A stretch of 4,197 bases of DNA, from the IMG/VR virus record IMGVR_UViG_2737471848_000018. One strand, given 5' to 3'. Under the pieces are notes generated by a model. The model saw only the letters and a list, made by a program, of their open reading frames with translations. It made no database searches and was not told where the DNA came from. This document shows positions 308 through 1,172 of this stretch, piece by piece (position 1 is the stretch's first letter; the number at the start of each line of letters is the position of its first letter). The stretch is from a virus. Taxonomy: Duplodnaviria; Heunggongvirae; Uroviricota; Caudoviricetes. The translations under genes and the position numbers were made by a program.

Positions 308-330
308 AAACCCGCTTCGGCGGGTTTTTT
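308..330 (+). terminator. Rho-independent terminator downstream of hok
   Basis: AAACCCGCTTCGGCGGGTTTTTT: 5-bp GC stem CCCGC/GCGGG around a TTCG loop, then a T6 run. Identical 23-mer recurs at 1150-1172. Confidence 0.75.
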
Positions 331-450
331 CACGTACTGTGGTTGTGAATACGATTGGTATTAGGCTATGCTAACAACATTAGCCTGACTAATTTTGTAT
401 TGACTTGATTTTTTGTTAAAGAACAGGACGGAGAAGTAAGGGTACACCCA

Positions 451-630
451 ATGAGCTACGCACTAAAAAAACACCCGCGATTGACTATTCCCCCTCGCGA
501 TAAAAGCGTTGTGGCAGCTCCGCGCCCGGCTATTGATGAAAATTGCACGCATCGTGAGCAGGTGAAAAATGCTTTCGATTTCGGTTTTTCTCGTTACGAG
601 AAGGCAATGGAAGAACTTTCAAAAGTGTAA
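451..630 (+). CDS. Small ORF (59 aa) immediately upstream of the Doc-family toxin gene; candidate cognate antitoxin or partner, family unknown
   Basis: Not in the ORF track (below its length cut-off), found by manual translation: MSYALKKHPRLTIPPRDKSVVAAPRPAIDENCTHREQVKNAFDFGFSRYEKAMEELSKV, stop TAA 628-630. AAGGG Shine-Dalgarno at 438-442, 8 nt before ATG 451. Ends 18 nt before the doc start, on the same strand, which is the usual antitoxin-then-toxin layout. I see no similarity to Phd/YefM, so the call is positional only. Confidence 0.45.
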   Translation: MSYALKKHPRLTIPPRDKSVVAAPRPAIDENCTHREQVKNAFDFGFSRYEKAMEELSKV

Positions 631-648
631 TAATGGGTATTGTGCTCT

Positions 649-1134
649 ATGGCTGAGATTGTTGAAGGAGTGCACTATCTTTCGGTTGATGATCTTACTG
701 AAATCAATCGCCTTTTAATTGAGCTTCAAACACCAGATGAACCTGTTGGTGTTCTGAGTCCAGATAACTTAAGTTCTTCTCAGGCCCGTCCCAGCATGGT
801 TCGATGGTATGAACAGATCAATGACATGTTTGTACTGGCATCGGTATTGATTGAAAGTCTGATTCAGAATCATCCGTTTGCTAATGCGAACAAACGAACA
901 GCTATGATGGCTGGTTACGTCTTCTTGTTGTTGAATGGCTATGAGTTAACAGCACCAGGCGATGAAATCGTGGAAATGGCAGAGGGGCTGGCCTGCAAAA
1001 CCTATACCCGAGAAGATCTCGAGAACTGGTTGTGTTATTGGTCTCGCGCGTATGACAGCCGGGAATTATGTAAAACAGGCGCAACTATTGTTTTGTATGA
1101 AACTATCAAGCTTAAAATAGAACAGCAAAACTAA
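649..1134 (+). CDS. doc: Doc-family toxin (death-on-curing; Fic-fold kinase family)
   Basis: Carries HPFANANKRTA, matching the Doc-type variant of the Fic motif (HxFx[D/N][A/G]NKR; P1 Doc has HIFNDANKRTA as I recall). Flanking residues (FVLASVLIESLIQN before, MMAGYVFLLLNGYEL after) align in character with P1 Doc. Start placed at ATG 649 (MAEIVEG...); the track's TTG 640 is an alternative. No strong Shine-Dalgarno, consistent with translational coupling to the upstream ORF. Stop TAA 1132-1134. Confidence 0.85.
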   Translation: MAEIVEGVHYLSVDDLTEINRLLIELQTPDEPVGVLSPDNLSSSQARPSMVRWYEQINDMFVLASVLIESLIQNHPFANANKRTAMMAGYVFLLLNGYELTAPGDEIVEMAEGLACKTYTREDLENWLCYWSRAYDSRELCKTGATIVLYETIKLKIEQQN

Positions 1135-1149
1135 AGGTGCTTCCAATGA

Positions 1150-1172
1150 AAACCCGCTTCGGCGGGTTTTTT
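1150..1172 (+). terminator. Rho-independent terminator downstream of doc (second copy of the 23-mer)
   Basis: AAACCCGCTTCGGCGGGTTTTTT, identical to 308-330, 16 nt after the doc stop. Confidence 0.75.

Follow-up and report, generated by a model that had tools for sequence, protein, structure and literature searches.

The window analysed here, i.e. the whole stretch of 4,197 nt from the viral record IMGVR_UViG_2737471848_000018, covers the early-right region of a lambdoid prophage and carries, between hokD (85-240) and an open reading frame (ORF) of 70 or 83 codons (1358/1319-1570), a pair of genes composed of a 59-codon ORF of an unannotated family (451-630) and a doc toxin gene (649-1134). 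Further downstream, the window contains genes for DUF1367, DUF1364/YbcO and DUF1133/Q-like proteins, followed by an ORF6N gene. An identical stretch is present in RefSeq in Escherichia coli OkiPb01684, where the prophage around it contains intR, xisR, ralR, recT, recE, kilR and ydaT. Because intR, xisR, recET and kilR are present, the host prophage is, judged by its gene content, Rac-like. An earlier reading made from the letters of the DNA (hereafter the sequence-only reading) had compared the locus with the Qin prophage, to which these surroundings do not correspond, and had taken the gene downstream of the pair for rem. It was right that hokD adjoins rem in the Qin prophage of E. coli K-12; a BLASTP comparison of the downstream gene with K-12 Rem returned no alignment at E≤100, and the name rem had to be dropped. 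The features of the region, which include two terminator repeats T1 and T2, are as follows:

85-240, plus strand: hokD, type I toxin gene (Pfam HOK_GEF, E=1.2e-23; labelled hokD in RefSeq)
308-330, plus strand: T1, intrinsic hokD terminator, which forms the left edge of the cassette (exact repeat, hairpin)
331-450, plus strand: leader of the cassette with candidate promoter and operator (motif recurrence, inverted repeat)
451-630, plus strand: putative antitoxin gene, 59 amino acids (aa), unannotated family (synteny with Doc, dN/dS, AlphaFold helix)
649-1134, plus strand: doc, Doc-type kinase toxin gene, Fic-fold by family, 161 aa (Pfam, NCBIfam, PHROG and PDB matches)
871-897, plus strand: HPFANANKR, catalytic motif of Doc (read from the sequence, aligned to known Docs)
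1150-1172, plus strand: T2, the cassette's own intrinsic terminator and right boundary (exact repeat, hairpin, moves with doc)

The name hokD had also been given by the sequence-only reading, and the Pfam match to Hok/Gef agrees with it.

The Doc toxin and its 59-residue neighbour

Every sequence test identifies the product of 649-1134 as a Doc toxin. It matches the Fic family of Pfam (PF02661, E=1.4e-11, 45.5 bits with a cut-off of 24), the NCBIfam model TIGR01550 DOC_P1 (E=3.7e-37, 127.2 bits with a cut-off of 38.65) and PHROG 577, "Doc-like toxin" (E=7.7e-51), and its best matches in the PDB are the Doc proteins of Enterococcus faecalis (9VZC, 6.8e-14) and of phage P1 (3K33, 1.2e-5). The motif HPFANANKRTA is encoded at nt 871-903. 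Its HPFANANKR part, which corresponds to Doc residues 75-83, fits the Doc-type pattern HxFx(D/N)(A/G)NKR, as opposed to the HxFx(D/E)GNGRxxR of the Fic AMPylases, aligns to HCFYNANKR of the E. faecalis Doc and HIFNDANKR of the P1 Doc, and is invariant or nearly so in an alignment of Doc homologues. The Doc identity, which the sequence-only reading had already proposed, is thus secured by profile matches far above the curated cut-offs and by an intact catalytic motif. The coordinates that it gave for the gene are also correct, and its length of 164 aa is not: the ATG at 649 is the conserved start codon, also chosen by RefSeq, and results in a protein of 161 aa, while 164 aa would result from a TTG start at 640. 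An AlphaFold model of Doc based on 14 close homologues was all-helical and of low confidence (pLDDT 47.8), and was judged unusable. Among the defence models of PADLOC, Doc was only marginally similar to the candidate system PDC-S23 (E about 2e-3), and the small ORF had no match.

The stop codon of the 59-codon ORF is located 18 nt upstream of the doc ATG, as had been noted before, and the claim that its product belongs to no annotated family was upheld. The protein has no Pfam match at E≤1, and so none to Phd/YefM (PF02604), and no match in NCBIfam; a search of the PDB at E≤10 returned no Phd, only a spurious ribosomal S25 at E=0.33. The sole family match is PHROG 2208, which is labelled "unknown function". 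An initial homology search retrieved only enterobacterial "hypothetical proteins" of 58-62 aa, and a profile search over 1.84 billion representatives retrieved about 37 clusters, all composed of short proteins of this same family; it provided no link to a known family, and two long repetitive proteins were treated as noise.

Members of the 59-aa family range from 56 to 62 residues. They display a conserved N-terminal segment (RLxIPxRDKxxVAxP), a variable middle part and a strongly conserved C-terminus (QVxNAFxxxFxRYxKAxxxLSKV). The gene is under strong purifying selection, with a median dN/dS of 0.16, and of 0.09 over the part that encodes the C-terminal helix. This helix was predicted by AlphaFold from a 37-sequence alignment (mean pLDDT 80) as a single amphipathic element comprising residues 34-57 (pLDDT 91-95); residues 6-33 were modelled without secondary structure, strands were absent, and before residue 34 only a 3-residue turn was found. 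The model shows no sign of a DNA-binding fold, and the 33 residues that precede the helix are too few to accommodate one. A class I Fic antitoxin of the VbhA/YhfG type was considered as an assignment for the small protein and rejected: the inhibitory helix motif [ST]xxxE[GN] is found in only 2 of 61 family members and is absent from the protein of the window.

The small ORF is tightly linked to doc. Using Doc peptide patterns alone as bait, 20 loci were collected from contigs representing one genome per species, and a member of the 59-aa family was located immediately upstream of doc, on the same strand, in all of them (20/20). The loci originate from Serratia, Yersinia pestis, Providencia, Morganella, Citrobacter, Xenorhabdus, Hafnia, Kluyvera, Proteus, Arsenophonus, Gilliamella, Pseudomonas, Entomomonas and Ignatzschineria. 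When 50,697 phage records were examined, we found only three with a Doc at least 58% identical, the Pseudomonas phages Sirocco and LPPA56 and the Salmonella phage SW-37, and each of these has the small ORF next to doc. The small ORF was matched in none of 20 phage records whose Doc match was below 60% identity (at most 47% in those inspected). No third conserved gene was found in the loci whose flanking ORFs were scanned. What is conserved across taxa and contexts is the synteny of two adjacent, co-oriented small genes, as in toxin-antitoxin (TA) systems of type II. In Proteus penneri (L034, 2977-3464) and Arsenophonus nasoniae (L035, 2986-3475), an apparent frameshift has divided doc into two frames that overlap, and the small ORF upstream is undamaged; that doc is broken first and the small ORF kept is the order of decay expected for a toxin-antitoxin pair.

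The settings of the pair are diverse: it follows hokD in the lambdoid early region of E. coli prophages, is part of a myovirus tail/baseplate cluster in Ewingella, and lies beside dinI/umuDC on a metagenomic contig. In Salmonella (L011, 4728-6009) it is found beside ParDE and VapBC pairs, and in E. coli O104:H4 (L004, 3354-3983) beside a RelE/ParE-HTH pair; the region after hok is therefore a collecting spot for toxin-antitoxin pairs. In Providencia heimbachae (L022), the cassette seems to lie outside a prophage, between ORFs whose translations, read by eye, look like chromosomal housekeeping genes and resemble topoisomerase I and a Cu/Zn superoxide dismutase, and the same seems to apply to Yersinia pestis NCTC5923 (L018).

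Terminator repeats, cassette boundaries and leader

The sequence AAACCCGCTTCGGCGGGTTTTTT occurs exactly twice in the window, at 308-330 (T1) and 1150-1172 (T2), where the sequence-only reading had placed two perfect 23-bp repeats, and no other copy was found in the window within 3 mismatches. Each of them can form a hairpin with a stem of 8 bp and a UUCG loop, behind which a U-run is located (T1: -13 kcal/mol, followed by U6; T2: -15.9 kcal/mol, z=-4), and both were missed by a consensus terminator scan, probably since the stem runs into the T-run. Such a repeat was obtained in 0 of 200 shuffles of the sequence. This null exaggerates how remarkable the repeat is, because the 21-nt core of the terminator is common in viral contigs: it was found in more than 120 of them, and 98 of the 120 that were examined are without hok and doc.

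The cassette is missing from otherwise homologous prophages, and the difference begins and ends at the terminator sequence. A prophage of E. coli O145 (L002) possesses hokD, one copy of the terminator and, downstream, the ORF that is also found in the window. It differs from the window by a clean 842 bp, i.e. one copy of the repeat plus a cassette body of 819 bp. The same right flank is found with an uninterrupted junction in 137 genomes and with the cassette in 16, and the earlier claim that the pair is an insertion relative to homologous prophages is borne out in this sense. Among 5,426 complete E. coli genomes, 125 contain the cassette and 4,806 contain hokD.

The right-hand terminator T2 belongs to the cassette. 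It remains attached to doc whichever of three downstream contexts follows in E. coli (O104:H4, O121 and O6:H16), and in these loci T1 and T2 differ from each other by 1-4 fixed differences, e.g. T-first versus A-first. The hairpin CCCGCTTCGGCGGG is located 3' of doc in Citrobacter and Xenorhabdus, and near-identical hairpins are found at this position in Morganella and Ewingella; hokD was not detected by tblastn in the loci fetched from these four genera. Conversely, the hokD of K-12 has the terminator and lacks the cassette, and the homology of the K-12 Qin prophage to the prophage of the window ends exactly there. More generally, mosaic prophages break sharply at the hokD terminator, since in most of about 3,000-5,000 genomes the similarity ends within a few bases of it, both with the window and with the empty site as the query.

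These observations bear on how the cassette came to lie, or not to lie, behind hokD. T1 and T2 are pre-existing look-alike terminators, each gene unit ending in a common phage terminator; the repeat was not made by the insertion, because T2 moves with doc, T1 and T2 differ in other loci, K-12 hokD carries its terminator without a cassette, and the core is generic. The suggestion of the sequence-only reading that the target or terminator was duplicated upon insertion is therefore abandoned. It had in its favour that the flanking copies are identical at 23 of 23 positions and that the empty site has a single copy. However, the right copy is the cassette's own where hokD was not detected, a transposase, an integrase and a terminal inverted repeat are all absent from the 842 bp, and 23 bp far exceeds the usual target duplications. 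A transposition-like event with target duplication is unlikely, and that the 23-bp repeats as such are a target-site duplication, left when the cassette entered the hok terminator in a transposition- or integration-like manner, is highly improbable. The alternative that the cassette is ancestral beside hokD, the empty sites being precise secondary deletions by recombination or slippage between the 23-bp repeats, fares better and still appears rather unlikely. Direct repeats at a spacing of 842 bp lend themselves well to deletion, the empty junction corresponds to exactly one repeat copy, and two diverged leader alleles both begin right after T1, which suggests an old junction between hok and the cassette; against this stand the rarity of the cassette relative to hokD among the complete genomes, the excess of empty over filled sites with the same right flank, the many genera that have the cassette without hokD, and the role of the hok terminator as a general breakpoint after which many different sequences are found. 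Because nearly the same, widespread terminator sequence closes both hokD and the cassette, recombination at or next to the terminators is the most likely way in which the cassette is gained or lost.

The cassette would need a promoter of its own, because T1 should stop transcripts coming from hok. In its leader, a weak candidate, the extended -10-like sequence TGGTATTAG, is located at 356-364; the cassettes of Citrobacter, Izhakiella, Hafnia and Kluyvera likewise contain TGGTATT, at 75-117 nt upstream of the small ORF. The leader also has an inverted repeat (TTAGGCTA/TAGCCTGA) at 361-388 (-10.2 kcal/mol, z=-2.2) and an alternative, equally weak candidate (TGtTAAAGA) at 414-422; a separate promoter scoring of 331-450 was too noisy to pick between the candidates. 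The Providencia and Morganella cassettes possess a textbook promoter (TTGACT-17-TATAAT) with a 20-bp palindrome in the spacer, and other lineages display TTGA-type -35 boxes, TA(C/G)ACT -10 boxes and palindromes of their own. The lineage palindromes are located next to or between the -35 and -10 boxes (TAATGTAACTTAACTTACATTA in Providencia/Morganella, TTACCTTTAAGGTAA in Ewingella/Xenorhabdus and ATAGCT..AGCTAT in Yersinia/Serratia), about -95 to -65 from the ATG of the small ORF (L017, L019, L020, L022 and L029; similar in L009, L014, L016, L018 and L024). Across the loci, the region upstream of the small ORF shows a modest excess of inverted repeats (mean best score 7.1, versus 5.6 in shuffles).

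A candidate minimal antitoxin for Doc

It is known from published work that Doc is neutralised by as little as the 22 C-terminal residues of Phd, and the hot spots of the interaction are F56, I59, M/F60, H/L63, L67 and L70 of the 73-residue protein (PMC9207808). The Phd of E. faecalis, although its sequence shows no similarity to that of E. coli Phd, binds Doc with a bent C-terminal helix (PMC13034048), and Phd-C was described as an exchangeable linear neutraliser, which is sufficient on its own against a Doc toxin and also works when fused to SUMO (PMC10440598). In 61 members of the 59-aa family, the conserved hydrophobic positions, counted from the C-terminus, are -26, -22, -18, -16, -14, -11, -7, -4 and -1. 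Positions -18, -14, -11, -7 and -4 coincide with the Phd hot spots F56, F/M60, L/H63, L67 and L70, so that five of the six hot spots are matched in register 0; this register scores 5/5 and all others at most 3 (p=0.002 upon shuffling of the last 26 residues). The helix register is compatible with a Phd-C-like binding mode, as a pattern match that falls short of proof. The sequence-only reading had described the small protein as looking nothing like Phd, which is right for the DNA-binding domain, which is absent, and does not extend to the C-terminal helix with its shared hot-spot register.

We consider it probable that the region 331-1172 is a self-contained two-gene type II TA cassette with a minimal, 59-aa antitoxin, located at the hokD terminator of a Rac-like prophage. 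That the 59-aa protein would be the cognate antitoxin of Doc is suggested by the strict synteny, the selection acting on it, its predicted structure and the hot-spot register. In the proposed layout, a leader with promoter precedes the antitoxin gene and doc, and a terminator closes the unit. As the analogy with P1 Doc suggests, the toxin would phosphorylate EF-Tu and thereby halt translation, and the C-terminal amphipathic helix of the 59-aa protein would occupy the groove of Doc in the manner of Phd's C-terminal helix. The antitoxin would then consist of little beyond this neutralising helix, without a recognisable DNA-binding domain. The cassette would be a moron, located at a breakpoint that a terminator defines; phage genomes that are homologous in other respects lack it, and it has its own terminator T2, which is kept after doc in other genera. 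Its biological role may be prophage addiction or phage defence.

Several points weigh against this interpretation. A comparison by hhalign of the 59-aa family with an alignment of P1 Phd was not significant (a 7-column match, probability about 1%). Position -15, a Phd hot-spot position, is mostly Gly in the 59-aa family, and the register match could merely reflect the ordinary periodicity of an amphipathic helix. A convincing sigma-70 promoter was not found in 331-450, the consensus scan of the plus strand being empty. Most of the cassette promoters bear inverted repeats, yet the model of the small protein offers no DNA-binding fold, which leaves autoregulation unexplained. As for the cassette's history, the empty and filled sites may differ by insertion or by deletion between the 23-bp repeats, and a precise deletion between the two copies is possible.

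The role of the small ORF is the point at which a different explanation has to be weighed, namely that it encodes an accessory or regulatory peptide (a regulator of transcription or translation, an adaptor or a chaperone), and that Doc is controlled otherwise or serves as a phage enzyme of host takeover. This explanation would account for the undetectable homology to antitoxin families and for the conserved N-terminal RLxIPxRDK, which has no counterpart in Phd; PHROGs places the Doc family in the category "moron, auxiliary metabolic gene and host takeover", and the inverted repeats of the promoters could be bound by something else. Nevertheless, the strictly one-to-one pairing of the two genes across very short gaps, the lack of a further conserved neighbour in the scanned flanks, the antitoxin-first order, which is typical for type II systems, the decay of doc with the small ORF kept, and the agreement of the helix register with the Phd hot spots all argue for an antitoxin, and we regard an accessory peptide as distinctly improbable.

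Beyond the reading of the pair as a minimal TA cassette, a more far-reaching proposal, possible although we consider it doubtful, is that the 59-aa protein founds an undescribed family of Doc antitoxins that are free of a DNA-binding domain, and whose invariant N-terminal RLxIPxRDK has a function beyond that of Phd. This segment could be a second inhibitory element, which reaches the active site of Doc or its EF-Tu-binding surface. Alternatively, with two antitoxins bridged by Doc, the segment could contact the lineage-specific promoter palindromes, in which case autoregulation would depend on the complex and not on a folded DNA-binding domain.

Compared with known systems, the pair most closely recalls Phd-Doc of P1 and Salmonella (type II; PDB 3K33 and 3DD7), with which it shares the Doc-type HxFx(D/N)(A/G)NKR motif, the closely spaced antitoxin gene in first position, a C-terminal helix of about 22-26 residues ending 3 residues past a conserved Leu, and a hydrophobic register corresponding to F56, F60, L/H63, L67 and L70. 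In contrast to this Phd, the 59-aa protein has neither a YefM/Phd N-terminal domain nor detectable homology, and carries the conserved IPxRDK segment instead; the Doc of the window is a distant relative of P1 Doc (E=1.2e-5) and is about 35 residues longer at its C-terminus. The closest solved Doc is that of the E. faecalis Phd-Doc complex (9VZC), whose Phd ends in ...ELYKELVT, resembling the ...AMEELSKV of the 59-aa protein; the N-terminal, DNA-binding domain of this Phd is of the beta-sheet kind, and this Phd drives the dimerisation of Doc. PaaA2-ParE2 is accompanied by the regulator PaaR2, whereas the cassette of the window holds no separate regulator gene. The single-domain antitoxin PaaA2 and the PanA_Phd-C:Doc complex nevertheless resemble the proposed arrangement in that a short linear helix is a sufficient neutraliser and the antitoxin is little more than this helix; unlike PanA_Phd-C, the 59-aa element would be a free-standing natural family and not be fused to Panacea (PMC10440598). 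Like phage morons, the cassette is absent from collinear prophages, bounded by terminators and found at varied positions across phages; it differs from them in that its promoter is a predicted one.

Other features of the window and significance

The hok locus of the window displays further elements upstream of the cassette. A mok-like frame that starts at 28 overlaps hokD, and positions 1-90 give a partial Rfam match to the 3' part of the sok region (40.3 bits, below the gathering score of 59), which is clipped by the 5' end of the window. Unlike K-12 hokD, the hok locus of the window may thus retain its sok/mok control region. Downstream of the cassette, the 1319-1570 ORF belongs to PHROG 1813 (function unknown); the AT-rich stretch 5' of it contains a 19-nt inverted repeat (1205-1223/1259-1277), and two promoter-like sites on the minus strand also precede it.

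Towards the 3' end of the window, Rfam matches above the gathering scores were obtained for the Hfq-binding small RNA isrK (3115-3191, 77.5 bits), for the C4 antisense RNA (3217-3300, 71 bits) and for the a1/b1 target sites of C4 RNA (3102-3154, 50.1 bits). These elements (3102-3300) are located directly 5' of the ORF6N antirepressor-type gene (3353-3769), which is C-terminally truncated according to RefSeq. By its arrangement, the region 3102-3769 looks like a control module of the P1/P7 c4-ant type or of the IsrK-AntQ type, placed downstream of the Q-like gene. RefSeq annotates a tRNA-Met at 4074-4144; ARAGORN found zero tRNAs in the window, and the Rfam tRNA match at 4075-4134 is partial (37.3 bits, model positions 7-64). 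This may be a degenerate or unusual phage tRNA.

Doc counts among the classical toxin families and is a textbook example of a toxin controlled by Phd. Doc proteins with a partner other than Phd are already known from MazE-Doc TasAB (PMC1626090) and from PanA-Doc (PMC10440598). Our literature search found no paper on the pair of Doc and the 59-aa protein, and a 2026 survey of Hok is silent on Doc. The partner of a whole Doc clade is named in no database, and it most likely represents an undescribed antitoxin family within a well-known kind of system; the general picture of toxin-antitoxin function is unchanged by it. This clade is common in prophages of Enterobacterales (enterohaemorrhagic E. 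coli (EHEC) O157, O104:H4 and O121, Yersinia pestis and Salmonella) and is also present in Pseudomonas phages. The look-alike terminators mark boundaries for the swapping of morons in lambdoid prophages. If the proposed function of the 59-aa protein is true, it would be a natural minimal Doc-neutralising peptide, comparable with the engineered Phd peptides, the pair would be a type II system that lacks an obvious domain for autoregulation, and the annotation "hypothetical protein" would be corrected in hundreds of pathogen genomes.

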